Assembly: GCA_050951605.1 (NCBI GenBank)
Contig: JBMNJJ010000002.1
Coordinates: 274,394 to 338,393 of the forward strand
DNA length: 64,000 nt
DNA from: Peptococcia bacterium
GTDB lineage: Bacteria; Bacillota; Peptococcia; DRI-13; DTU073
Direction: 5' to 3'
The notes under the pieces are model-generated. The model saw nothing but the letters and a program-made list of their open reading frames with translations, ran no database searches and was not told the DNA's origin. Within the stretch, counting starts at the first letter, position 1, and the number at the start of each line of letters is the position of its first letter. Both the position numbers and the translations under genes were made by a program. Positions 8,244-63,919 of this stretch are shown here, in pieces.

Positions 8244-8882
8244 GTGTATAGTGATGAGGAATTAGTGAGGCAAAGTAAAAACGGTGATCTACAAGCTTTT
8301 GAAGAGCTAATTTGTCGTTATGAACGTAAAATCTATACTATAGCCTATCGGATGATGGGTAATTTTGAGGATGCTAATGATTTAGCTCAGGAAGCATTTT
8401 TAAGGGCTTTTCGAGCTATTGGTGGTTTTCGTGGTGACTCTTCTTTTTCAACTTGGCTGTGCCATATTGTTACCAATCTTTGCCGTGATGAGTTACGCAA
8501 ACGTTATCGCCTTTCTGTGGAATCCTTAGATGAAGAGATTTGTCTTGGTGAAGGAGAAGTGAAAAAACAGATACCTTCGTCAAATCCCGGACCGGAGGAA
8601 ATATATGAAAAGCAAGAATTGCAGCAAAAATTACAGGAATTATTAATGACTCTTTCCCCGGAATTTCGAGTTGCTGTAGTTTTGCGAGATATACACGGGT
8701 TTACTTATCGAGAGATTGCTGAACAAATGGAATGTTCATTAGGTACAGTAAAATCCAGAATAAGTAGGGGAAGAAACTATTTGAAAGAAAAGTTATTGGC
8801 CAGGCAGGAGCAAAATCAGCAATGGGAACAAAAGTCTTCATCTGAGCGTCTACATAAAGTGAAAGGGGGGGGAAGCCAATGA
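8244..8882 (+). CDS. ECF-type RNA polymerase sigma-70 family factor
   Basis: Region 2 (FEELICRYERKIYTIAYRMMGNFEDANDLAQEAFLRAF) and region 4 HTH (FTYREIAEQMECSLGTVKSRISRGR). GTG start. Its end overlaps the anti-sigma gene start by 4 nt. Confidence 0.9.
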   Translation: MYSDEELVRQSKNGDLQAFEELICRYERKIYTIAYRMMGNFEDANDLAQEAFLRAFRAIGGFRGDSSFSTWLCHIVTNLCRDELRKRYRLSVESLDEEICLGEGEVKKQIPSSNPGPEEIYEKQELQQKLQELLMTLSPEFRVAVVLRDIHGFTYREIAEQMECSLGTVKSRISRGRNYLKEKLLARQEQNQQWEQKSSSERLHKVKGGGSQ

Positions 8883-10183
8883 AATGCAAAGAAGTGCAAG
8901 AAAATTTATCGCTTTATTTGGATCATGAATTATCAGCAGAGGAAAGGGTTTTATTACGAAATCATTTAGTTAATTGTTCTATTTGCCAAGGAGAATTGGC
9001 GGCACTTCAGGAAACTATTTCACAGCTTTCTTCCTTGGAGGAAGTAAATCCACCAGCGAGTTTTCGTCGTGAACTTTATACTAAACTGGAAAAAAGTATT
9101 GCTCAAGAGACTGTAAGGAAGAAAAAGGGTTTTTGGGGGGGTGGTTTAATGACTAGCTTTAAGACATGGAAACATCGTACTGTTTTTTTGCCTGTGGCGA
9201 TATCTTTGGTTTTATTAGTTTTACTTGTTCCTGTTTTTCTTGATGAGGTTCGTTTTGATGATAGTAGTAAGCTTACTGAAAAAAGCAGTGAGCCGGAAAT
9301 GATGTTTTATGGTGTTAGTATGGACCAAAATAGTGTGAGCCAAGAGAATGTAGCTAAAAGTATGGCTCCGGAAATGGCAGCGGTTAATTTGGGAAGAGGA
9401 GTAGCTCCGGAGATAATGACTACAACTACAACCGGAAATGTAGTGAAGCAGTCGGTAGAGGAAAGCAAATCTGCAATTAAGCCAATGGAGAGAAAGCTAA
9501 TTAAAAATGCGGAGATACATCTTTTAGCAGATGATTATAATAGTGCTGTGGAATCACTGAAGAGTAAAGTGAGTGCCTTAGATGGCTATATTACTAATGA
9601 AACGGTTAATGTCATTGATTCACGTGGGAGTAAAAGAGGTTATCTTGAGGTTAGGGTTCCTCAACTTAGGTTTGATGAATTTTTTGCAGGGGTAAATAAT
9701 TTAGGTAAACTTAAAAATAGTAATATCTATACCCAAGATGTTACCGAGGAATATATTGATGTAGAAAGTCGTCTAAATGTCATGCGTACTAAGGAAGAAA
9801 GGCTTTTAGCTATTTTGAATCAGTCGGGTGAACTTAGTGATGTTTTGGCTGTAGAAAATGAATTGGCTAATACGCGGGCTCAGTTAGAATCTTTAGAAGG
9901 TAGATTGCGTTATCTTAGTAATCAGACGGAGTTTTCTACGTTTAATCTGACGATTGAACAGGTTGTAGTTTCAACACAACAGGTTTCTGCTAGTGGGTTA
10001 CAAGGAGTGGGAGTTCGAGCTAAAGAAGCTTTTGTGAAGGCAATTAATAATATTGTTTTGGGTATAGGTCTGACTTTAGTTTTTATCAGTGCGGCGATTC
10101 CTTATTTAGTTGTAGTAGCTGTTGTCGTAGGGCTAATATGGCGAATTTGGCGTAGTATGCAAAGAAGAAAAAAGCAGGGTTAA
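8879..10183 (+). CDS. Anti-sigma factor: N-terminal zf-HC2 domain, one TM helix, extracytoplasmic DUF4349-like domain, C-terminal TM anchor
   Basis: H-x3-C-x2-C motif (NHLVNCSICQ) after CKEVQENLSLYLD. It is translationally coupled (ATGA) to the sigma gene. The C-terminal coiled-coil region and terminal TM segment match the DUF4349 architecture. Confidence 0.8.
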   Translation: MKCKEVQENLSLYLDHELSAEERVLLRNHLVNCSICQGELAALQETISQLSSLEEVNPPASFRRELYTKLEKSIAQETVRKKKGFWGGGLMTSFKTWKHRTVFLPVAISLVLLVLLVPVFLDEVRFDDSSKLTEKSSEPEMMFYGVSMDQNSVSQENVAKSMAPEMAAVNLGRGVAPEIMTTTTTGNVVKQSVEESKSAIKPMERKLIKNAEIHLLADDYNSAVESLKSKVSALDGYITNETVNVIDSRGSKRGYLEVRVPQLRFDEFFAGVNNLGKLKNSNIYTQDVTEEYIDVESRLNVMRTKEERLLAILNQSGELSDVLAVENELANTRAQLESLEGRLRYLSNQTEFSTFNLTIEQVVVSTQQVSASGLQGVGVRAKEAFVKAINNIVLGIGLTLVFISAAIPYLVVVAVVVGLIWRIWRSMQRRKKQG

Positions 10184-14628: not shown

Positions 14629-15192
14629 TTGTGGTATAAGTTCTTGAAAAAAATTGCTTTGCTCCTCCTGTTAGGCTTTATCTGTATTCTTTTGTTTACT
14701 AGTTCTTGGTTTTTGCAGCGATTTTTCCCTTATCCCCACCAAGAATTAATTAGAGAAAATTGTTATACATATGAGGTAGATCCTTATCTTGTTTTAGCAA
14801 TTATAAAAACTGAAAGTCGTTTCTATTCTCGTGCTTATTCTCGAGTGGGAGCGATAGGTTTAATGCAGATTATGCCGGAGACTGGGAAGTGGATCGCTCA
14901 GCAAATGGGGCTGGAGGATTTTGAGGAAGTTAAACTTTTTGAGCCGAGATATAATATACCTATGGGTATTTGGTATCTTGCATATCTTTATGAAGGTTTT
15001 GACAAAAACACAGTGAAAGCATTGGCTGCTTATAATGCGGGTACAACTAAGGTAAAAAAGTGGTTAAGAGAAGGACTTTGGACAGGAGAATTACAAGACC
15101 TTGAACAAATTCCTTATCAGGAAACCAGAAAGTATGTAAATCGTGTTTTGTTTAATTATCAAGTATATAAATATATTTATCAAAAAAGCTAA
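14629..15192 (+). CDS. Lytic transglycosylase (SLT domain) with N-terminal membrane anchor
   Basis: Catalytic context AIIKTESRF, plus GLMQIMPETG and AYNAG motifs. N-terminal TM helix. TTG start with RBS GGGGAGG. Confidence 0.82.
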   Translation: MWYKFLKKIALLLLLGFICILLFTSSWFLQRFFPYPHQELIRENCYTYEVDPYLVLAIIKTESRFYSRAYSRVGAIGLMQIMPETGKWIAQQMGLEDFEEVKLFEPRYNIPMGIWYLAYLYEGFDKNTVKALAAYNAGTTKVKKWLREGLWTGELQDLEQIPYQETRKYVNRVLFNYQVYKYIYQKS

Positions 15193-15244
15193 AAATGTAG
15201 TGTAGATAATTGTTAGTACTTAAACAAATAACGGGAGGAAGAAA

Positions 15245-16282
15245 ATGGAAGAAAAATTAATGACATTGGCACAGGTGAATGCTTTTCAACCGAGTAAGGA
15301 AAGAAAATTATTTTCGGCACAACATGAAGAGATTATTCAAGGCGCAACTACTGATGTTTATTTTGTGAAGACGCAGGAAATTTTGGAAAAGTGTGGTTTA
15401 AATGAGACGGTGATTACTGCGGAAATTTTTGCTCGTCGGGGAGGGATATTGGCAGGCGTTCCTGAAGTATTAGGGCTTTTTGCAAATAGTCCGGTAGAAA
15501 TATGTTCTTTACAGGAAGGACAAGCATTTTCTCCTAAAGAGGTAGTGATGCAAATACGAGGAAAATATAGTGATATTGGGATCTATGAAACACCTTTATT
15601 AGGAATTTTGGCTAGTTCTAGTGGTTGGGCTAGTGCGGCGAAGGAAGCAAAGGAAGCAGCAGGTGAAAAGTCAGTGTTATGTTTTGGGGCAAGGCATGTT
15701 CATCCTGCGGTAGCTCCTGTGATGGAGAGAGCAGCTGTGATTGGTGGGGCTGATGGGGCTAGTTGTATTCTTGGAGCAAAATTGCTTAGTAGAGAACCGG
15801 CCGGTACTGTTCCCCATGCTGTATTTTTAATTATGGGGGATTCGGTGAAGGTGGCGAAGGCTTATCATGAAATTATGCCTTCCGGTGAACCGCGAACTGT
15901 TTTGGTAGATACTTTTAAAGATGAAGCTGAAGAAGCTTTGAGAGTAGCGGAAGCTTTAGGTTCTAATTTACAGGGAATCCGCTTAGATACACCTAGTGAA
16001 CGGGGCGGAGTTACACCAGAATTGGTTAAGGAAATACGGGGACGTTTAAGTCAAAAAGGTTTTTCTCATGTACAGATTTTTGTTTCCGGTGGCTTGACTC
16101 CGGAAAAAATTAGTTTACTTAAAGATGCCGGTGCTGATGCTTTTGGTGTAGGGAGCTATATTTCAGCTGCTGCTCCTATTGATATGACTATGGATATTAA
16201 AGAAGTAGCAGGTAAACCTGTGGCTAAACGTGGTCGAATTCCCGGTCTTAGACCTAATGATCGTTTGTGTAAAATGAAATAA
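15245..16282 (+). CDS. Nicotinate phosphoribosyltransferase (short, archaeal/clostridial type)
   Basis: 345 aa of the type II phosphoribosyltransferase fold family. The segments TDVYFVKT..., GARHVHP, and IRLDTPSERGG / FVSGGL are typical of the short NaPRTase/QPRTase-like group. Confidence 0.75.
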   Translation: MEEKLMTLAQVNAFQPSKERKLFSAQHEEIIQGATTDVYFVKTQEILEKCGLNETVITAEIFARRGGILAGVPEVLGLFANSPVEICSLQEGQAFSPKEVVMQIRGKYSDIGIYETPLLGILASSSGWASAAKEAKEAAGEKSVLCFGARHVHPAVAPVMERAAVIGGADGASCILGAKLLSREPAGTVPHAVFLIMGDSVKVAKAYHEIMPSGEPRTVLVDTFKDEAEEALRVAEALGSNLQGIRLDTPSERGGVTPELVKEIRGRLSQKGFSHVQIFVSGGLTPEKISLLKDAGADAFGVGSYISAAAPIDMTMDIKEVAGKPVAKRGRIPGLRPNDRLCKMK

Positions 16283-55919: not shown

Positions 55920-57875
55920 TTGCTAACCCTTATTTTTTCTGCAATTATAGGGGGATTTATCTCTATTTTTCTATTTTTTAAAAAGAGTTATTTATTATTT
56001 TTAATGATTATTATTTTAATAATTTTTTTAATGTTTTATATTAAGGAAATGTTATTCCGGAGAGTTGTTTCCCCTTTAATTCAACTTAATCAAGCTAGTA
56101 AAGAATTAGCAGCAGGTAATTTTTCTTATCGGGTAGATTTAACAAAGAAAAAAATTCCCCAGGAAATAAGTGAATTAGGTCAAAGATTTAACACAATTAC
56201 TTTAAATCTGGAAAAAGCGAAATTTTCTCTCCATAGGCATGGCGGCATTTTAGAAAAACAAGCTCAAAAATATAAGCGAGAGCTTTTGATGAGAAATAAG
56301 GAAATGGTAGCTCTTTACGCTGTGGCTACTTCTGCTAGTAATACTTATGAACTTTCCGATATTTTAAACGAAGTTTTTAATGAAATTATAGACCTGTTTG
56401 AGGTGGAATTTGTTACAATTTATTTTTTACAGACAGATGACCATGACCAAGAATATATTCATACGATTTGGCAGACAGATTACTCAGAGAAGGAAAAAGA
56501 TATTTTTACAAAATATACAAGTAATTATAATAAGTTAGTTGTGGAAAAAGAGGAAATATTGGTTATTGAAGACCTACAAGAAAGTAATGTTGATGTTCCT
56601 TTAGTATTAAGGCAGAGTAATTTGAAATCTTTAGTTAGTATTCCTATCTATTATCAAAATATTGTTTTAGGTGCGATAACTTTGACGAGCTGTTGTCCAC
56701 AACGCTTTGGACAGCAGGAATTAGTTATTTTAGAAGCTGTTTGTAATCAATTGGGAATAATTATTAGTAATTTTGTTTTATTAAATATAATTAGTGAAAA
56801 ACATCAAACTTTGTTAGCTATTATCAATAGTATGCATGAAGGCTTAATTCTCTTAAATCACAAGGGAAAAGTAATTTATGCTAACCCTTTATTTTTTGAG
56901 ATATTTCATCTTAAAAAGGTGGAGGGACAGAGGGAAATATTTATCTCTGAATTAAAAAAAGAAATAAATCCAGAAGTGAAAGTTGTTTTACCTTATGAGG
57001 AACTAAAGGAACGCTTTCTTAACCAAGAGGTACTTGGCTATGGGGAACTTTCCGTGACTTATCGAGATAAGATTAGATATTATTTAATTCAAGGCTTCCC
57101 GGTGAGCATGAGTGGTCATTTTCTTGGTTATGGGTATGTTGTACGTGATATCACTAGAGAAAAGGAAATTGATAACTTGAAAAATTCGCTTCTTTCTACG
57201 GTATCTCATGAATTACGTTCACCTCTTACTACAATTTATGGTAGTGCGGAATCACTTTTAAGAAAAGATGTGGTTTGGTCACAGGAGGAAGAGAATGAGT
57301 TTATCAAAGCTATTGTAGAGGAAAGCCAACGTTTAAGTGAGTTAATTAATAATATTATGGATATGTCTAAAATTAAAGCGGGAGTATTTACATTAGATTT
57401 ATACATTGTTGATTTAGGAAAAGTTATTGAACGAGTAGTAAAAAGGTTTAGAAATAAGTTCCCGGAAAATAACTTTATAGTAGACATTCCTGAGAAAAGA
57501 CCCAATGTACTTATTGATGAAAAGAGAATTGACCAAGTTTTAAATAATCTTTTAGAAAATGCAATCAAGTATTCTCCTGTTTATAAAACTATTCGTATTG
57601 AGGCGACTTATCTACAACGGGAGAAGTTGATTAAGGTAGGGGTAATAGATCGTGGTATAGGGATAGCCTTTCAAGACCAACAGGCTATTTTTGGAAGATT
57701 TTGTCGTCTGGAAAAGGCTCGTTGTATACAAGCCAAAGGTAGCGGAGTTGGTCTTTCTATTGCTAAAGGAATTATAGAGAATCATGGTGGTAAGTTATGG
57801 GTGGAAAGTGAATTAGGTCAAGGAAGTAAATTTTACTTTACTTTACCTGTAAAAAAGGAGGAGGAAAGAAAATGA
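55920..57875 (+). CDS. Sensor histidine kinase (TM-HAMP-GAF-PAS-HisKA-HATPase), KdpD-C-terminal-like
   Basis: H-box [17 protein letters not shown]-box [12 protein letters not shown]-boxes DRGIGI and [10 protein letters not shown]. An alternative CTG start at 55875 lies 6 nt after AAGGAGGG and would add [15 protein letters not shown]. Confidence 0.88.
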
Positions 57876-58573
57876 AAAAACCAATTGCTCTTGTTGTAGA
57901 TGATGAATCTAATATTTTACGCTTTATTCGGGCGAATTTGAGGGCAAGTGGCTTTGAAGTTGCTTCTGCAATGACCGGGACAGAGGCATTAGTTCAATTT
58001 AAAGTAGCAGATCCTGATATTATTATCTTGGACTTAATGTTACCGGAATTAGATGGGCTAGAGGTATGTCGACGTATTCGGCAAGAGTCAGATGTACCTA
58101 TTGTTATAATTACTGCTAAAGGAGATTTACGAGATGCGGTAGAAGGTTTAAATGCCGGAGCAGATGATTATATTACGAAGCCTTTTGCTGTAGAGGAATT
58201 ATTAGCTCGTGTCAATGCGGTCATGCGTAGAATTAAAAATAATTTCGCACAGTCTTCACCAGATCAAATAAAATTAGGAAATTTAGTCATAGACCTTGCT
58301 CAAAGGCGAGTGTTTGTCAATGGGGAGGCAACTCATCTTACTCCAACAGAGTTTAAGTTATTAATTTATTTAGCAAATCATGTGGACAAAGTAGTTTCAC
58401 ATGATGAAATATTAGAATCAATTTGGGGAGAAGAATATCGAGAATGTACTCATTATCTTAGGGTAAGTATTGGTCGTTTAAGGCAAAAAATAGAAACTGA
58501 TCCCGGAAACCCCGAATATATTGTTACTTGTAGTGGTGTGGGTTATATGATTAGAAATCTTTGTATAAGTTAG
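57872..58573 (+). CDS. OmpR-family response regulator, KdpE-like
   Basis: Receiver domain (VVDDE...[14 protein letters not shown]...ITAKG). The winged-helix segment [33 protein letters not shown] resembles KdpE. It is coupled to the kinase gene (ATGA). Confidence 0.88.
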
Positions 58574-58691
58574 TACATAAAGTTGATTTGTAAGTTTCTA
58601 ATTATTTATTGTATAATGAAAGAGTATTTATAAGGTGTAGTTTCGGTTGTTTAAGATCTGAATGGGCAAAGGAGTGAAAGGAGAATTATTT

Positions 58692-59150
58692 ATGGTTGAG
58701 CATCAGTTTATTGTTTTTTCACTTAATAATGAGGAGTTTGGACTCGCGATTAATACTGTTCGTGAAATTGTTCAACTGCAGAAAATAATTAATCTCCCTC
58801 AAGAATCTGAATTGATCGAAGGAATTATGAGTTTGCGGAAGGAAATACTTCCCGTTGTTGATTTAAAGAAACGTTTTTATGGTATGGCTGCGGGAGACGT
58901 AGAAACAAATCGAATAATTGTAGTTGACATTGGTGGTTGGTTGGTTGGAATTATTGTTGATGAGGTTTTAGAAGTATTAAGTTTGCAGGAAAAAGATATT
59001 GTGCCCTTGCCACCTTTTGTACAACGGGTTACAGCTGACTGTGGTTTGCAAGGCGTGGGTAGATTTAGTGGTCGGCTAGTGATTTTGCTGGATTTATCAC
59101 AGGCTTTTAGTGGTGATGAGAAGAGCTTATTGCAAGAAGCGGTGAATTAA
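58692..59150 (+). CDS. CheW-like coupling-domain protein
   Basis: FIVFSLNNEEFGLAINTVREIV...IMSLRKEILPVVDLKKRF...VGIIVDEVLEVL. The ATG at 58692 lies 8 nt after AAAGGAG. Confidence 0.85.
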   Translation: MVEHQFIVFSLNNEEFGLAINTVREIVQLQKIINLPQESELIEGIMSLRKEILPVVDLKKRFYGMAAGDVETNRIIVVDIGGWLVGIIVDEVLEVLSLQEKDIVPLPPFVQRVTADCGLQGVGRFSGRLVILLDLSQAFSGDEKSLLQEAVN

Positions 59151-59155
59151 ATAAT

Positions 59156-59590
59156 ATGGATAAAACAGGGCAGAAGAATACATTAATTATGGCTTTCCCG
59201 ATTGAACCGGGGAATTTTAAGGATGCAGGAGAGGCTAGTTCAAAAATTAAAAGTAGGTTGTTGCAGCTTGGTTTTCCGGGAACACTTATTAGGCGTGTGG
59301 CTATTGCTACTTATGAAGCAGAAATGAATTTAGTGATTCACTCCGAGGGTGGAACGATTGAAGCAGAAATTAATCCGGGGTCAGTAAATATTTTAGTTGT
59401 TGATGAGGGACCTGGTATACTTGATTTAAATAAGGCTATGCAAGAAGGATTTTCTACAGCGCCGGAACATGTACGTGAGATGGGCTTTGGAGCGGGAATG
59501 GGTTTACCTAATATGCGTAGTTGTACAAGCGAATTTACTATTACTTCAGAATTCGGTAAAGGAACAACAATTAAAATGGTTATTAGTTGA
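59156..59590 (+). CDS. Small GHKL ATPase of the anti-sigma-factor/serine-kinase (RsbW/SpoIIAB-like) type
   Basis: 144 aa. N-box-like YEAEMNLVIH, G1 VVDEGPGI, G2 GFGAGMGLPN. Confidence 0.75.
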   Translation: MDKTGQKNTLIMAFPIEPGNFKDAGEASSKIKSRLLQLGFPGTLIRRVAIATYEAEMNLVIHSEGGTIEAEINPGSVNILVVDEGPGILDLNKAMQEGFSTAPEHVREMGFGAGMGLPNMRSCTSEFTITSEFGKGTTIKMVIS

Positions 59591-59604
59591 TAAAGGAGTG
59601 AAGT

Positions 59605-60912
59605 TTGGTGAACTCATATTTTCACTCAGTTACCTTGGATAAAGAATTGTGTATGGGTTGTACTAATTGTATTAAACGTTGCCCTACTGAAGCGATTCGT
59701 GTTCGTGAGGGTAAGGCAAAAATAATTGATGAACGATGTATTGATTGTGGTGAATGTATTAGAATTTGCCCACATCATGCCAAGTTAGCTCTTACAGATA
59801 CTTTAGATAGTATTAAAAAATATAAATATCCGATAGCTCTTCCGGCACCCAGTTTGTATGCTCAATTTAATTCTAAGGTGACGATTAATCATATTCTTGC
59901 CGGTTTACTGGAATTAGGGTTCTATAAGGTTTGGGAAGTGGCTTATGGGGCGGAATTTGTTAGTCGGGCCATGAATCAGTTTTTTCAAAAAAACACTTTT
60001 TCTAAACCTGCAATTTCTTCGGCTTGTCCGGCTGTTTTAAAATTAATTCAGGTTAAATTTCCGGAATTGATTAATCAAGTAATCCCCATTAAGTCACCCA
60101 TGGAGGCAACAGCTTTACTAGCTCGTGAAATAATGGCAAAGGAAGGTTATCCTCCTGATGAGGTGGGCATCTTTTTTATTTCTCCTTGTGCAGCTAAAGT
60201 GACAGCGGTAAAAAACCCTCTTGGGATGTTGAAATCTGCTGTAGATGGAGTTATTGGAATTTCTAGTATCTATGGTTCTTTGCGGAATAAAGTAGAAAAG
60301 CTACAAAAGGTTCCCGAATTACAAAAAGCTACTGAAGCCGGAGTGGGTTGGGCTGTACCCGGGGGAGAAAGCAATTTGCTTACGGGTGTTCGTCGGTTAG
60401 CTGTTGATGGAATTGCTAATGTCAGTAAAGTTTTAGAGGAAGTGGTGATGGGGAAGTTAAAAGAAGTAGACTTTATTGAGGGCTTAGCTTGTATAGGTGG
60501 ATGTGTTGGTGGTCCACTGACGGTGGAAAACCCTTTTATGGCTAAGGAACGTATTATTAGTTTAGTAAATTATAGGCAAAAAGAATTACCCAAACTTCCG
60601 GATGTTCTAAATTGGGAAGACTTAACTTGGGAAAAGAAGGTGCATCCTTTGGGTGTTTTGCGACTCGATGAAGATATGGTTATGGCTTTGCAAAAGCTAG
60701 AGACAATGGAATTTTTGCAGAAAGATTTGCCGGGATTAGATTGTGGCTCGTGTGGTGCTCCTACTTGTCGTGCTCTAGCAGAAGATATTGTTCGTGGGCA
60801 AGCGGATGAGGTTGATTGTGTATTTAAATTAAGGGAAAAAGTAACTGATTTAGCGGAAAAGATGGTACAGATATCTAGCAAAATGCCTCCTTCGATTGGT
60901 AAAAAGGAGTGA
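59605..60912 (+). CDS. [FeFe]-hydrogenase-like Fe-S protein (2x[4Fe-4S] ferredoxin + H-domain-like + C-terminal C-x2-C-x4-C-x16-C), putative sensor
   Basis: CMGCTNCIKRCP and CIDCGECIRICP. H-cluster-motif-like SSACPA, SPCAAK and ACIGGCVGGP. C-terminal CGSCGAPTC-x16-C. Confidence 0.8.
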   Translation: MVNSYFHSVTLDKELCMGCTNCIKRCPTEAIRVREGKAKIIDERCIDCGECIRICPHHAKLALTDTLDSIKKYKYPIALPAPSLYAQFNSKVTINHILAGLLELGFYKVWEVAYGAEFVSRAMNQFFQKNTFSKPAISSACPAVLKLIQVKFPELINQVIPIKSPMEATALLAREIMAKEGYPPDEVGIFFISPCAAKVTAVKNPLGMLKSAVDGVIGISSIYGSLRNKVEKLQKVPELQKATEAGVGWAVPGGESNLLTGVRRLAVDGIANVSKVLEEVVMGKLKEVDFIEGLACIGGCVGGPLTVENPFMAKERIISLVNYRQKELPKLPDVLNWEDLTWEKKVHPLGVLRLDEDMVMALQKLETMEFLQKDLPGLDCGSCGAPTCRALAEDIVRGQADEVDCVFKLREKVTDLAEKMVQISSKMPPSIGKKE

Positions 60913-61170
60913 TTAAATACAAAGTATTTAGATCCATTAGAAGCAGCAAAAAAAGAGGGTCCTAGAAGGGGATTATATGCTCAGGGTGAGTATAAATTAG
61001 TTTCGCAAAAAGACAAAGGTGAATATTCAGGGACAGGGGAAGCTGTAGTATGGCATACGTATAAAAATGCTTCTTGTGAAATACTGTTAATCCAACCTGT
61101 GAAGGTTGGTTCCGGAGGGATTTGGGTGATTAACAGTATTCAAGAAGATTTTTTAGGTAAAGGTTCATAA
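60913..61170 (+). other. Start-less 85-codon open frame directly continuing the reading frame of 59605-60912 past its TGA
   Basis: Hand translation gives LNTKYLDPLEAAKKEGPRRGLYAQGEYKLVSQKDKGEYSGTGEAVVWHTYKNASCEILLIQPVKVGSGGIWVINSIQEDFLGKGS*. There is no ATG/GTG/TTG in the first 62 codons. Confidence 0.3.
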
Positions 61171-61258
61171 AAAAATATGCAACAATATGCAGGACTTAAA
61201 GGAGGGGGCGAAGAATAAAAACAACATGGTTTTTTAAATAAGCTGGGGGCATATTGGT

Positions 61259-61750
61259 ATGACCAGTAAAGATAGGCTTTTTTGGGAACATGTAAAGGAT
61301 AGTACTTTATTTGAGATAGTGATAGTACTAATAATGCTTGCTATAGTTTTGTTGACGAGTGTTTTTGAATTATGGCAAGTTCAAGTTCAAGCAGCCTGGG
61401 AAGCTGATTCTATCACTCTAAAAAACATAGCGAAAATAGCACAATTATATGCGCTTTCGGAAAATAAAATAGGAGAAGGTGTCTCTGTACGGGAGCTAAT
61501 TGATGAAAATTTGATCGAAGATCAACCTTTAAATCGAAGATGCTTTTATAGAACAACGGGTACTTGGAAGTCCTATAGAAATAGCCAAGGCAAGAAATTA
61601 AGTGAAGTTTGCCTAGAGGAACGTCCTCCTAAAATTATTTTTAATCAGTCTACGGGAAGTGTATCTAATTTTAAAATTTTTGTAATCACCTTAATTGGTC
61701 ATCCACCGTATGTTAGAGATGTGGATGAATATCTAGAAAAACTAAAGTAG
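61259..61750 (+). CDS. Hypothetical protein with a single N-terminal TM helix (weakly pilin-like N-terminus)
   Basis: 163 aa. The hydrophobic segment LFEIVIVLIMLAIVLLTSVF contains a Glu in a pilin-like context, but no G|F prepilin cleavage motif is present. Confidence 0.5.
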   Translation: MTSKDRLFWEHVKDSTLFEIVIVLIMLAIVLLTSVFELWQVQVQAAWEADSITLKNIAKIAQLYALSENKIGEGVSVRELIDENLIEDQPLNRRCFYRTTGTWKSYRNSQGKKLSEVCLEERPPKIIFNQSTGSVSNFKIFVITLIGHPPYVRDVDEYLEKLK

Positions 61751-62005
61751 GGTTTTGACTGGGCGATGATAAGAAAAGAGATGATTCATAGATAAAGAGA
61801 GTGGATGATATTGTCTACTCTCTTTACTTTATTCTTCTCACTTATAGAAGCAATCTGACTCTATTTGTATTTTTACAAAAAATCTGTATTATTTTATAAA
61901 TTAATAGAGGAAATTCGTAAAATAAGGCGAAATTAATAAATAGACACTATTGTGAAGAATAATAATTAAAGCCACGTGAACTTTTTACAAAAGGGGGATA
62001 TAGAG

Positions 62006-63919
62006 TTGGGCGAATTAGTGAAAGTTATTGGTATAAAAGAAGAAAATTGTATTAATTGTCACAGGTGTATACAAGTGTGTCCTGTTAAGTTTTGTAATGA
62101 TGGTAGTGGGGACAATGTTGAATTAGATGATGATTTATGTATCGGTTGTGGCGCTTGTATTGAGGCTTGTATTGAGGCTCATGATGGTAATGAGGAAAAA
62201 ATTGCCCGTTATCCTCTTGATGACATTGAACAATTTAAAAGAGCTTTAGCTTCCGGCCAGGAAATAGCCGCTCTTGTTGCTCCTTCGGCTTATTGTAATT
62301 TTGATGCGCCACGCTTGATTACCGCTTTGAAAAAATTGGGAGTAAAAGCAGTTTTTGATGTATCTTTGGGTGCTGAGATTACTATAGCGGCTTATCATAA
62401 TGCTCTGGTTTCAGGAGAAGTTACTACACCGATTATTGCTCAGCCTTGTCCGGCTATTGTTAAGTATATAGAGATTATGCATCCCAATTTAATTAAACAT
62501 TTAGCTCCGAGCGGTAGTCCTGCACATGATGCTGCTGTTTATATTAAATCTAAATATCCCCATTATACCCTGGCTTTCATTTCCCCTTGTTTAGCTAAAA
62601 AGCGCGAGTTTCTTGATAGTCAGAGCGTTAAATATAATGTTACATATAAAACTTTGGAGAAATTATTTCGAAAAAATGGTATTCATGTAGAAGCTATGGA
62701 AAAAGGAAGTTTTGATGATATTGTAGGAGCGGAAATTGCGGCCAATTTCTCTACTCCTGGTGGTTTAAAAGAATCTTATTTACATTGGTATCCTGAGACA
62801 AAGTCTCAAATGATTACAAAAATTGAAGGTCCCTTGGTTTATGAAAAATATTTAGCTGATTTGGAAAAGGATATAAAATTGAATAAGGCTTATTTGCCAC
62901 TAGTTGTGGATATTCTTAACTGTGAAAAAGGTTGTAATATGGGTCCGGGAACGATTAATCATTATGAATCTATAGATCGGGTTGAGGGGCAAATTGCGGA
63001 ACGGGTTGATAGAAATAAGAGTGACCTTAAAAATAAACGAGCTTTACGTAAATTTTTGAAAAAGGTAATTGCAGAACATGACTTTAGTTATACTTTTTAT
63101 GAGGATTTGTCAGAAAATGTCAAAATCAAAAAACCAACAGAAAGTGAATTGCGTGAAGTCTATGCCAAAATGCATAAAGAAAGCGATAATGATATGCGAA
63201 ATTGTAGATCTTGCGGCTATCGTTCCTGTTATGAAATGGCCGTAGCTGTTTTTAATGGCTTAAACAAACCGGATAATTGTTACTTATATCGTGAAAAAGA
63301 AATTTTACAAGAGAAAAAGATGATTGAAGAATCAATAGCTTTAGCTGAAAAAAACAAACGGCTCTTTGAAGAAAAATCGATAGAAGCAGAAGATAGTGCT
63401 AGAAAAATTAAAGATATTCTTTATCAGGTTTCAGAAATATTTAAGGAAATAACAAAGAATGTAGGGGAAATTTCCTCCAGTTCCGAAATTACCTTTGAGA
63501 AGTTTTCTTCAATTATTGATAACATTAGTAAATTTGAACAAATATCTAATGAAGTTGTATTACGGACACAAAATCTGATTCCTATTGTCAATACAATTGG
63601 TGAAGTTGCTGACCAAACTAATCTCTTGGCTCTTAATGCGGCAATTGAAGCGGCACGTGCTGGAGAAAAAGGACGAGGTTTTGCTGTTGTTGCTGAAGAA
63701 ATTAGAAAACTTGCTGATAAAACTAATGAAGAATTAAAGAAGATTAAGCCTTTTGTCGAAGAAATTATTCATCGGGTAAATATGCAAAATCAAGAAACGA
63801 CAAAGGTTAAAGATCAATCTGAAGAATCGAAGAGAGTTACAGAATTAATGAATGCGGCTATCCAGACTCTGGAAAGTCAAATGGAGGATGTTTTTGATAA
63901 AATTGAGCAATTAGAATAA
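62006..63919 (+). CDS. Soluble chemoreceptor: [FeFe]-hydrogenase-like sensor domain fused to a methyl-accepting chemotaxis signalling domain
   Basis: [12 protein letters not shown] and [11 protein letters not shown]; [14 protein letters not shown] and [11 protein letters not shown]; CRSCGYRSC-x16-C. The C-terminal MCP hairpin tip is [34 protein letters not shown]. No TM helix. Probable TTG start at 62006 (8 nt after GGGGG); the listed ORF opens at GTG 61976. Confidence 0.85.

Follow-up and report, generated by a model that had tools for sequence, protein, structure and literature searches.

How putative sensory [FeFe]-hydrogenases relay their signal is an open question, and a 2026 study of TamHydS, the group D protein of Thermoanaerobacter mathranii, leaves the interaction partners that are being sought still to be identified (PMC13104023). 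A gene cluster of an uncultured Peptococcia bacterium, found in a stretch of 64,000 nucleotides of contig JBMNJJ010000002.1 (the whole stretch is termed here the window), bears on this question. It encodes a CheW adaptor, a small GHKL ATPase and two [FeFe]-hydrogenase-like proteins, the second fused to the signalling domain of a methyl-accepting chemotaxis protein (MCP). The initial annotation of the window had proposed that these proteins form one H2-sensing chemotaxis-like module; the genes, coordinates and motifs that it described are all present, and all open reading frames (ORFs) between 55920 and 63919 lie on the plus strand. Our analysis suggests that the locus is, on balance, a lineage-specific juxtaposition of two putative H2-sensing modules that evolved separately. 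The four genes concerned are:

58692-59150, plus strand: cheW, CheW adaptor of 152 amino acids (162 from an alternative start at 58662); Pfam PF01584, 1e-29, 103 bits against a cut-off of 23.5
59156-59590, plus strand: GHKL ATPase of the SpoIIAB/RsbW type, a putative Ser/Thr kinase or nucleotide switch of 144 amino acids; Pfam HATPase_c 2.6e-8 and HATPase_c_2 1e-7
59605-60912, plus strand: HydD/HydS (hereafter HydS), group D (M2e) putative sensory [FeFe]-hydrogenase of 435 amino acids; Pfam two Fer4, Fe_hyd_lg_C 3e-37 and PF04060 FeS
62006-63919, plus strand: HydC2, soluble chemoreceptor of 637 amino acids (647 from a GTG at 61976); Pfam two Fer4, Fe_hyd_lg_C 2e-30, PF04060 FeS and MCPsignal 1.9e-30

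Domains were called with Pfam, NCBIfam was used for equivalog cut-offs, and the hydrogenase motifs were aligned with the D. desulfuricans hydrogenase DdHydAB by HMMER. From its N- to its C-terminus HydS consists of two [4Fe-4S] motifs, an H-domain, a Cx2Cx4Cx16C cluster and a short helix; it has no PAS domain. Its motifs SSACPA, ISPCAAK and LACIGGCVGG fell on TS(C/A)CPG, MPCIAK and MACPGGCVCG, respectively; the four cysteines of the H-cluster are kept, the proton-relay Cys is replaced by Ala (C299A), and the substitutions M353S and M497L are present. Group D is defined by two N-terminal clusters, the Cx2Cx4Cx16C tail, the absence of PAS and of C299, the replacement of M353 by Ser or Thr and a substituted M497 (PMC8163306). 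Every one of these hallmarks is found in HydS, with the domain order, the retained cysteines and the C299A/M353S/M497L set as in TamHydS. By these sequence marks HydS is a group D (M2e) putative sensory [FeFe]-hydrogenase. Over its full length it is 55% identical to a Thermoanaerobacter M2e protein (P0059), which we take to be of the TamHydS family. To our knowledge, TamHydS is the sole characterised group D enzyme.

HydC2 has the same order of two [4Fe-4S] motifs, an H-domain, here with QPCP, and a Cx2Cx4Cx16C cluster, which then runs into a long helix and an MCP hairpin of ∼12 heptads per arm; its orthologues measure 636-637 amino acids. At all three H-cluster motifs it aligns with HydS column for column, with Pro at the position of the proton-relay Cys, and from this alignment it can be deduced that the four H-cluster cysteines are kept in HydC2 too. 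The [2Fe]-site ligand Cys and the Lys are retained in both proteins, each of which holds one copy of C-x2-C-x4-C-x16-C and two of the ferredoxin-type motif CxxCxxCxxxC. The sensory-type signature that had been noticed from the letters of the window, namely four H-cluster cysteines retained in both proteins, a proton-relay Cys replaced by Ala or Pro and a C-terminal cluster motif, is thus borne out by the alignments. The two proteins had also been called paralogues. They do share layout and motifs, but they are only 22% identical over ∼420 amino acids and belong to different subfamilies, which makes them old members of the family, and a recent duplication of the two genes is ruled out.

The sensor part of HydC2 is 50-58% identical to that of Syntrophomonas relatives, in which the output is either HisKA-HATPase_c (∼696 amino acids, e.g., S. 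wolfei P0275) or a PAS domain, a sigma-54 AAA+ activator and HTH_8 (∼897 amino acids). The MCP-fused form of the sensor occurs in about 25 related clusters. Common to all three types of fusion are the motifs QPCP, SPC and CEKGC, the C-terminal cluster and a helix that starts with LYxEKE right after the fourth Cys of that cluster. A low-confidence AlphaFold2 (AF2) model of full-length HydC2, of which only the secondary structure was used (predicted local distance difference test score, pLDDT, 65), predicts that one continuous helix leads from the fourth Cys into the coiled coil and that the hairpin falls near residue 552. The tip of the hairpin is near-identical to that of Tsr. HydDB distinguishes a histidine-kinase-linked class C1 and a chemotactic, MCP-linked class C2, both of them putative (PMC5037454). 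HydC2 is a group C2-type sensor by its fusion architecture and its histidine-kinase-fused relatives, rather than by placement in HydDB, and its earlier reading as a soluble MCP fusion of a recognised class was right. As in group C2 (PMC5037454), an H-domain and a C-terminal cluster are fused to an MCP domain, and no transmembrane region was noted; the present family differs in having QPCP, with Pro at the proton-relay position, and in standing beside a group D module, which it does in this sublineage only. Orthologues of HydC2 at 63-67% identity stand alone, flanked by mgsA-like and thioredoxin genes and with no related gene in the vicinity, so that the four-gene unit of the window is best explained as a lineage-specific juxtaposition of two modules.

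The nature of the small ATPase was addressed by sequence and by fold. It matches SpoIIAB by sequence (7e-7) and retains the catalytic Glu/Asn of the N box, DEGxGI of the G1 box and GMG of the G2 box. Its AF2 model (pLDDT 92.6) has a Bergerat ATP-binding fold with an N-terminal dimerisation strand and helix, and Foldseek aligned it over ∼140 columns, i.e., its full length, with SpoIIAB (template modelling (TM) score 0.75-0.82, root mean square deviation 2.2-2.6 Å), RsbW coming next. With the NCBIfam spoIIAB model TIGR01925 the protein scored 53.4 bits and did not reach the cut-off of 135. We conclude, from these matches, that it is a distinct subfamily of the SpoIIAB/RsbW type; an identical ATPase is annotated in a metagenome-assembled genome (MAG) of Peptococcia. 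No match to CheA was obtained, either by sequence at E<1 or among the best 50 fold matches (CheA P4 included), and the protein is a single domain that lacks the P1 (HPt), P3 (dimerisation) and P5 (CheW-like) parts of CheA. A split CheA, in which CheW would stand for P5 and the ATPase for P4, is ruled out, since the sequence of the ATPase matches SpoIIAB alone, its fold matches SpoIIAB/RsbW, and CheA is missing from the best 50 fold matches.

With the partner-switching anti-sigma kinases SpoIIAB, RsbW and RsbT the ATPase shares the full-length fold (TM ∼0.8), the N-box Glu/Asn, DxGxG in G1, GxG in G2 and a length of ∼145 amino acids. It differs from them in scoring below the NCBIfam SpoIIAB cut-off and in its neighbours, an invariant hydrogenase-like sensor and usually DRTGG and PHP proteins. 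STAS proteins are classic substrates of kinases of the SpoIIAB/RsbW type. No gene for a STAS antagonist, a sigma factor or a PP2C phosphatase was found near the ATPase gene at this locus; among the group D loci a STAS gene lies near one (L093), with a weak match at another (L033, E 1e-4) and none near the others. At L093 (115-1829) a HAMP-MCP gene is followed directly by the STAS-domain gene, 8 kb 5′ of CheW-DRTGG-GHKL-HydS.

To place the locus among its relatives, 165 non-identical loci with a group D gene (L numbers) were collected from genomes and metagenomes and their ORFs searched with the window proteins and with the canonical neighbours; the denominators below are the loci with enough flanking sequence (153, 142, 132 or 96). 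A GHKL gene lies at most 1 kb 5′ of the group D gene in all 153 of 153 loci, nearly all of which are devoid of CheW or MCP. This makes the ATPase a universal partner of the group D sensor rather than part of a chemotaxis core. A DRTGG gene was found upstream of the group D gene in 123/142 loci and downstream in 114/132, a PHP phosphoesterase gene downstream in 107/132, HydA further downstream in 56/96, and CheW upstream in only 9 of 142. The canonical unit, DRTGG-GHKL-HydS-DRTGG-PHP-HydC-HydB-HydA, is strikingly uniform, reading DRTGG-GHKL-HydS-DRTGG-PHP-NuoE-(HATPase)-HydB-HydA in L094 (8218-16505), L095 (8214-16042) and most of L009-L175. Together, its ATPase, its PHP phosphoesterase and its pair of small DRTGG proteins recall, by analogy, a kinase/phosphatase/substrate partner-switching set, of which our literature search found no description at group D loci. 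A single fused ORF encodes both DRTGG and GHKL in three loci (L045 7083-7976, a Clostridia MAG; L046 7085-7966, Thermoanaerobacterium sp.; L062 7019-7960, Tepidanaerobacter sp.). Such fusions are Rosetta-stone evidence, at the level of sequence, for joint action of the ATPase and the upstream DRTGG protein at canonical group D loci. Land et al. remarked on only one neighbour of the group D gene, a flanking 'histidine kinase-like ATPase' (PMC8163306).

The window departs from this canonical setting. It is like that of TamHydS in the domain order and active-site substitutions of the hydrogenase and in the histidine-kinase-like ATPase gene directly 5′ (PMC8163306, PMC13104023), but downstream DRTGG, PHP and HydCBA genes are missing and CheW and a two-component pair, a histidine kinase (HK) and a response regulator (RR), stand upstream instead. 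HydA, HydB and NuoE were not found in the window or in the 7 kb downstream, so the usual placement of group D genes upstream of a bifurcating HydABC is not seen here. In a neighbour-joining tree the HydS proteins at least ∼59% identical to that of the window form one group, with L008 and L093 (57%) outside; none of that group has the downstream DRTGG-PHP-HydCBA genes, nor has L093. The layouts found in this clade and its neighbours were:

HK-RR-CheW-GHKL-HydS(-HydC2): the window and L084
RR-CheW-GHKL-HydS-...-HydC2: L087
HK-RR-(x)-CheW-GHKL-HydS(-CN_hydrolase): L089, L091, L007 and L098
CheW-DRTGG-GHKL-HydS-CN_hydrolase: L006 and L093
HK-RR-GHKL-HydS, with no CheW: L004, L005, L096, L097 and L099

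At least nine non-identical loci (HydS identity 57-100%) carry CheW, always directly 5′ of [DRTGG-]GHKL-HydS; counts for the clade are lower bounds, as the metagenome scan listed few close relatives. CheW was probably ancestral to the clade, and it was lost at least three times within it (L004; L005/L096/L099; L097) with GHKL-HydS intact. HydC2 follows the group D module only in the window, L084, L087 and L004, and in L004 the MCP-hydrogenase stands beside GHKL-HydS without CheW. Synteny with the window holds at 61-89% identity, and conservation of the cluster beyond this strain, on which the initial annotation had staked its proposal, was thus found. All five genes are under purifying selection (ratio of nonsynonymous to synonymous substitution rates, dN/dS, 0.08-0.31, window against the 89% and 76% relatives), CheW evolving fastest (0.25-0.31). 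Group D proteins next to an ATPase, as well as group C2 proteins fused to an MCP domain, have already been described, as putative sensors; the clade linked to CheW and a two-component pair is new here, and our literature search found no report in which group D hydrogenases are linked to CheW, to DRTGG or to a two-component system. In CheW loci without an MCP-hydrogenase, a gene for a CN hydrolase (nitrilase superfamily) lies 3′ of HydS (L089 11317-12096, L091 11336-12121, L093 11583-12362, L006 and L007), as near as 2 nt in L089.

The adaptor itself looks conventional. It matches the CheW structure 2qdl of the PDB (4e-24) and carries the conserved LR(G) motif as SLRK, and both the CheW-like call and the SpoIIAB/RsbW-type call of the initial annotation proved right. 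It is 40-68% identical to the CheW at the same position in eight other loci and 39% identical to canonical Thermoanaerobacter CheW; with the NCBIfam E. coli-type equivalog it scored 85.6 and did not reach the cut-off of 260. A specialised CheW subfamily is unsupported: the CheWs of these loci share 40-68% identity among themselves and 38-46% with the canonical Thermoanaerobacter protein (the E. coli and T. maritima CheWs in the alignment were approximate sequences that served as rough outgroups only). Judged by sequence, the CheW of the locus is an ordinary CheW. When the clade was compared with about 150 canonical sequences, otherwise-conserved positions had changed at one site in GHKL (K121 to R) and two in HydS, D107 and E281 (window 59923-59925 and 60445-60447, plus strand). 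Each of these two residues is present in >90% of 152 canonical group D proteins, and both are hydrophobic or small throughout the clade that lost DRTGG/PHP/HydCBA. Partner-specific substitutions in GHKL and HydS of the clade are limited to just these one and two positions; the three replacements may be the mark of a lost interface.

These results suggest the following model, which we hold to be more probable than not. The first module would be cheW-GHKL-hydS behind the two-component pair. Its group D hydrogenase would bind H2 at a slowly turning-over H-cluster, as expected from the 55% identity to the Thermoanaerobacter M2e protein, and would pass the signal to the SpoIIAB/RsbW-like ATPase, a pairing evident from their invariant adjacency. 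In most Clostridia the GHKL-HydS pair is encoded between two DRTGG proteins and a PHP phosphoesterase, 5′ of the bifurcating HydCBA; in the Peptococcia-centred clade, where DRTGG, PHP and HydCBA are gone, the pair has come to stand with a canonical CheW and a two-component system, probably with a transcriptional output, and the output may have moved from the HydCBA operon to the two-component regulator and/or chemotaxis. The second module would be a soluble MCP in which a group C-type hydrogenase sensor forms the ligand-binding part; in other proteins this sensor is joined to a histidine kinase or to a sigma-54 activator. Through its canonical hairpin tip the MCP most likely binds CheW and a conventional CheA, the gene for which would lie elsewhere in the genome, and this would give H2-dependent taxis. 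CheW would then be an ordinary adaptor for chemoreceptor arrays, and the GHKL protein no substitute for CheA. There are hints, in short, that hydrogen sensing feeds chemotaxis.

Several observations weigh against this model. cheW lies directly 5′ of GHKL-HydS or DRTGG-GHKL-HydS even where no MCP-hydrogenase is nearby, with a gap of 5 nt to the ATPase gene here, and a purely ordinary CheW leaves this unexplained. The MCP part of HydC2 is very short, with 83 residues (∼12 heptads) beyond the tip, and lacks methylation consensus sites, so that HydC2 may not act as a classical adapting receptor. Compared with canonical MCP-CheW-CheA arrays, the HydC2 tip and CheW are canonical by sequence, but the receptor has only ∼12 heptads per arm, no methylation consensus and a cytoplasmic metalloprotein as sensor, and the locus is without CheA, CheY, CheR and CheB. 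Genes cheA and cheY, flagellar genes and hydEFG are all lacking from the window and its ±10-kb flanks. The C-terminal cluster of TamHydS was not reduced by H2 (2026 study, PMC13104023); for QPCP-type sensors, our literature search found no demonstrated binding of an H-cluster.

The reading that survives best beside this model, and one that does not exclude it, holds that the group D sensor really signals through the two-component pair. HydS would act together with GHKL to control the kinase, via PAS/GAF and in trans, and the OmpR-type regulator would alter transcription. We regard it as a possible but tentative explanation. The pair consists of:

55920-57875, plus strand: sensor histidine kinase of 651 amino acids with two transmembrane segments, HAMP, GAF, PAS, HisKA and HATPase_c (Pfam)
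57872-58573, plus strand: OmpR-type response regulator with receiver and winged-helix DNA-binding domains (Pfam), overlapping the kinase gene by 4 nt

It had been called KdpDE-like, which is ruled out by the absence of a KdpD domain (Pfam); the kinase has the order HAMP-GAF-PAS-HisKA-HATPase, and the regulator is of the OmpR type. Whether the pair belongs to the unit had been left open by the initial annotation. Across the clade it stays with the group D module: orthologous kinase and regulator genes lie 5′ of GHKL-HydS in L001, L004, L005, L007, L084, L089, L091 and L096-L098, the pair is downstream in L006, and the regulator is 70-84% identical to those of related loci (dN/dS 0.10-0.18). That the pair adjoins GHKL-HydS in most members of exactly the clade that has lost DRTGG/PHP/HydCBA favours such an output, as does the direct fusion of HydC2-type relatives to HisKA-HATPase, which makes coupling of a hydrogenase to a kinase a recurrent design. 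The arrangement would parallel the regulatory [NiFe]-hydrogenases (HoxBC-HoxJ-HoxA and HupUV-HupT-HupR; HydDB group 2b), where a low-turnover hydrogenase serves as H2 sensor beside a PAS histidine kinase and a response regulator; the window has an unrelated metal site and protein family and, in addition, a SpoIIAB-like ATPase and CheW. On the other side, the kinase seems to be eroding in the sublineage of the window while the regulator is kept. Its orthologues measure ∼900 amino acids and carry a periplasmic dCache_1 domain (L084 5561-8275, L089 5123-7828), which the 651-residue kinase of the window has lost, and in the 89% relative (L087/L088) the kinase is absent from the usual upstream position, with a 134-residue HATPase-domain ORF 3′ of HydS in L087. 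Moreover, L093 has CheW-DRTGG-GHKL-HydS with no two-component pair nearby, and the adjacency may just reflect operon transcription under an unrelated signal.

It is less probable, and in our view unlikely, that CheW provides a physical link from the group D sensor/ATPase pair to chemoreceptor arrays, either as a Ser/Thr phosphorylation target of the ATPase or as a recruiter of GHKL-HydS to the arrays; H2 sensed by the group D protein would then modulate chemotaxis with no need of the MCP fusion. Such a coupling would account for a CheW that stands directly 5′ of [DRTGG-]GHKL-HydS in at least nine loci and at least three genomic backgrounds, several of them without an MCP gene nearby, that is apparently ancestral to the clade and under purifying selection, and that occupies the position of the DRTGG protein, itself fused to GHKL in three other loci. 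It is difficult to reconcile with the repeated loss of CheW from clade members that keep GHKL-HydS, with the ordinary look of the CheWs, with the paucity of clade-specific substitutions in GHKL and HydS, and with the absence of any CheW-GHKL fusion among the best 120 GHKL homologues. A bolder form of this proposal, to which we give still less credit, is that within the clade the group D sensor and the SpoIIAB-like kinase are wired into chemoreceptor arrays via CheW, e.g., by H2-dependent phosphorylation or sequestration of CheW, which would be a CheA-independent Ser/Thr-kinase input to chemotaxis. If true, group D [FeFe]-hydrogenases would gain their first identified signalling partner, and Clostridia their first H2-taxis circuit.

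Quite improbable is the view that the hydrogenase-like proteins are not H2 sensors at all, being low-activity catalytic hydrogenases or FeS-based sensors of ferredoxin or redox state. TamHydS does convert H+ and H2 reversibly at a low rate (PMC8163306), and the literature still speaks of a putative sensory role for groups C and D (PMC8163306, PMC13104023, PMC5037454). However, both proteins of the window have lost the proton-relay Cys and kept the ligand Cys and the Lys of the [2Fe] site, the HydC2-type module is fused to three different signalling outputs, and a signalling ATPase invariably accompanies group D.

The spacer between HydS and HydC2 is decaying, variable DNA. It contains:

60928-61167, plus strand: 5′-truncated remnant of a gene for a Germane-domain protein, of which the 80 codons at the C-terminal end survive, with 87.5% identity to residues 210-289 of the gene that is intact in L087 (6770-7639)
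61259-61750, plus strand: pilin-like ORF of 163 amino acids with a hydrophobic N-terminus (STLFE...) and no Gly at -1; NCBIfam ComGC 3.5e-5, below the cut-off
61793-61826, plus strand: terminator-like hairpin 3′ of the pilin-like ORF, 15-bp stem and T-rich tail; a pattern match only

About 1.6 kb of L087, comprising the histidine-kinase fragment and the Germane N-terminus, are missing from the window directly after HydS, and in L084 the spacer measures 228 nt. Among the loci searched, the pilin-like ORF is present only in the 100%-identical contigs L001 and L002 and has no counterpart in L087; it therefore looks like a lineage-specific insertion and is probably outside the module.

The weakest reading, that of the initial annotation, in which MCP-hydrogenase, CheW and GHKL form a non-canonical ternary core with the small ATPase in place of CheA, appeals to three genes within 5 kb on one strand, the short CheW-GHKL gap, the canonical MCP tip and the lack of CheA in the window or flanks, but is highly improbable given an ATPase that accompanies group D in 153/153 loci, hardly any of them with CheW or MCP, that has a SpoIIAB fold without HPt, dimerisation or P5 domain and no CheA among its sequence or fold matches, an MCP-hydrogenase that occurs without CheW and GHKL (the lone orthologues) or without CheW (L004), CheW-GHKL-HydS units with no MCP-hydrogenase nearby, and the decay of the spacer.

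The surroundings of the locus were also inspected. The locus recurs unchanged on the metagenomic contigs L001 and L002 (100% identical), and on the identical contig it is followed by DUF1858, polysaccharide deacetylase and DUF1015 genes, among which there is no che gene. When the window was queried with the CheW, receiver, MCP, kinase and hydrogenase sequences of the locus, zero additional copies were found. Of the remaining window ORFs of at least 110 amino acids all but four were scanned with Pfam, and those scanned are housekeeping genes only (e.g., Obg, Spo0B, RNase G, PFOR, MetH, GlnA, PolA and an extracytoplasmic function (ECF) sigma/anti-sigma pair); the earlier statement that no CheA or CheY is encoded in the window agrees with these scans and queries, the four ORFs left out of Pfam aside. 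The ECF sigma factor and its zf-HC2/DUF4349 anti-sigma protein (window 8244-10183, plus strand), 50 kb from the locus, are a self-contained pair with no link to the SpoIIAB-like ATPase. DUF1015 lies just 3′ of this locus (63919 onward; L001 8540-11194) and 3′ of HydA in the canonical L095 (16097-17344), and SLT and QRPTase genes occur 5′ of this locus (window 14629-16282) as well as 5′ of that of Thermoanaerobacter; these shared neighbours may be old synteny traces or coincidence. An Rfam search of the locus gave zero matches at E≤0.1, i.e., no regulatory RNA. Matches to promoter and terminator patterns were no more frequent than in shuffled sequences, hence operon boundaries stay inferred; one weak match, by pattern only, lies in the spacer between the regulator gene and cheW:

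58588-58617, plus strand: sigma-70-like promoter match, TTGTAA-18-TATAAT

For the question of how the sensory [FeFe]-hydrogenases signal, two leads emerge: i) the SpoIIAB-like ATPase is the invariant neighbour of group D and, since it is also fused to DRTGG in three loci, the ATPase and the DRTGG protein are the first candidates for a group D complex, and ii) a clade exists in which DRTGG/PHP/HydCBA have been swapped for CheW and a two-component system, with an MCP-hydrogenase alongside in the tip lineages, which points to chemotaxis and transcription as outputs. The link of CheW to the group D sensor is itself a clue to the proteins with which such sensors interact. Should H2-guided taxis occur among fermenting or syntrophic Clostridia, it would have a bearing on the way in which producers and consumers of H2 find each other.

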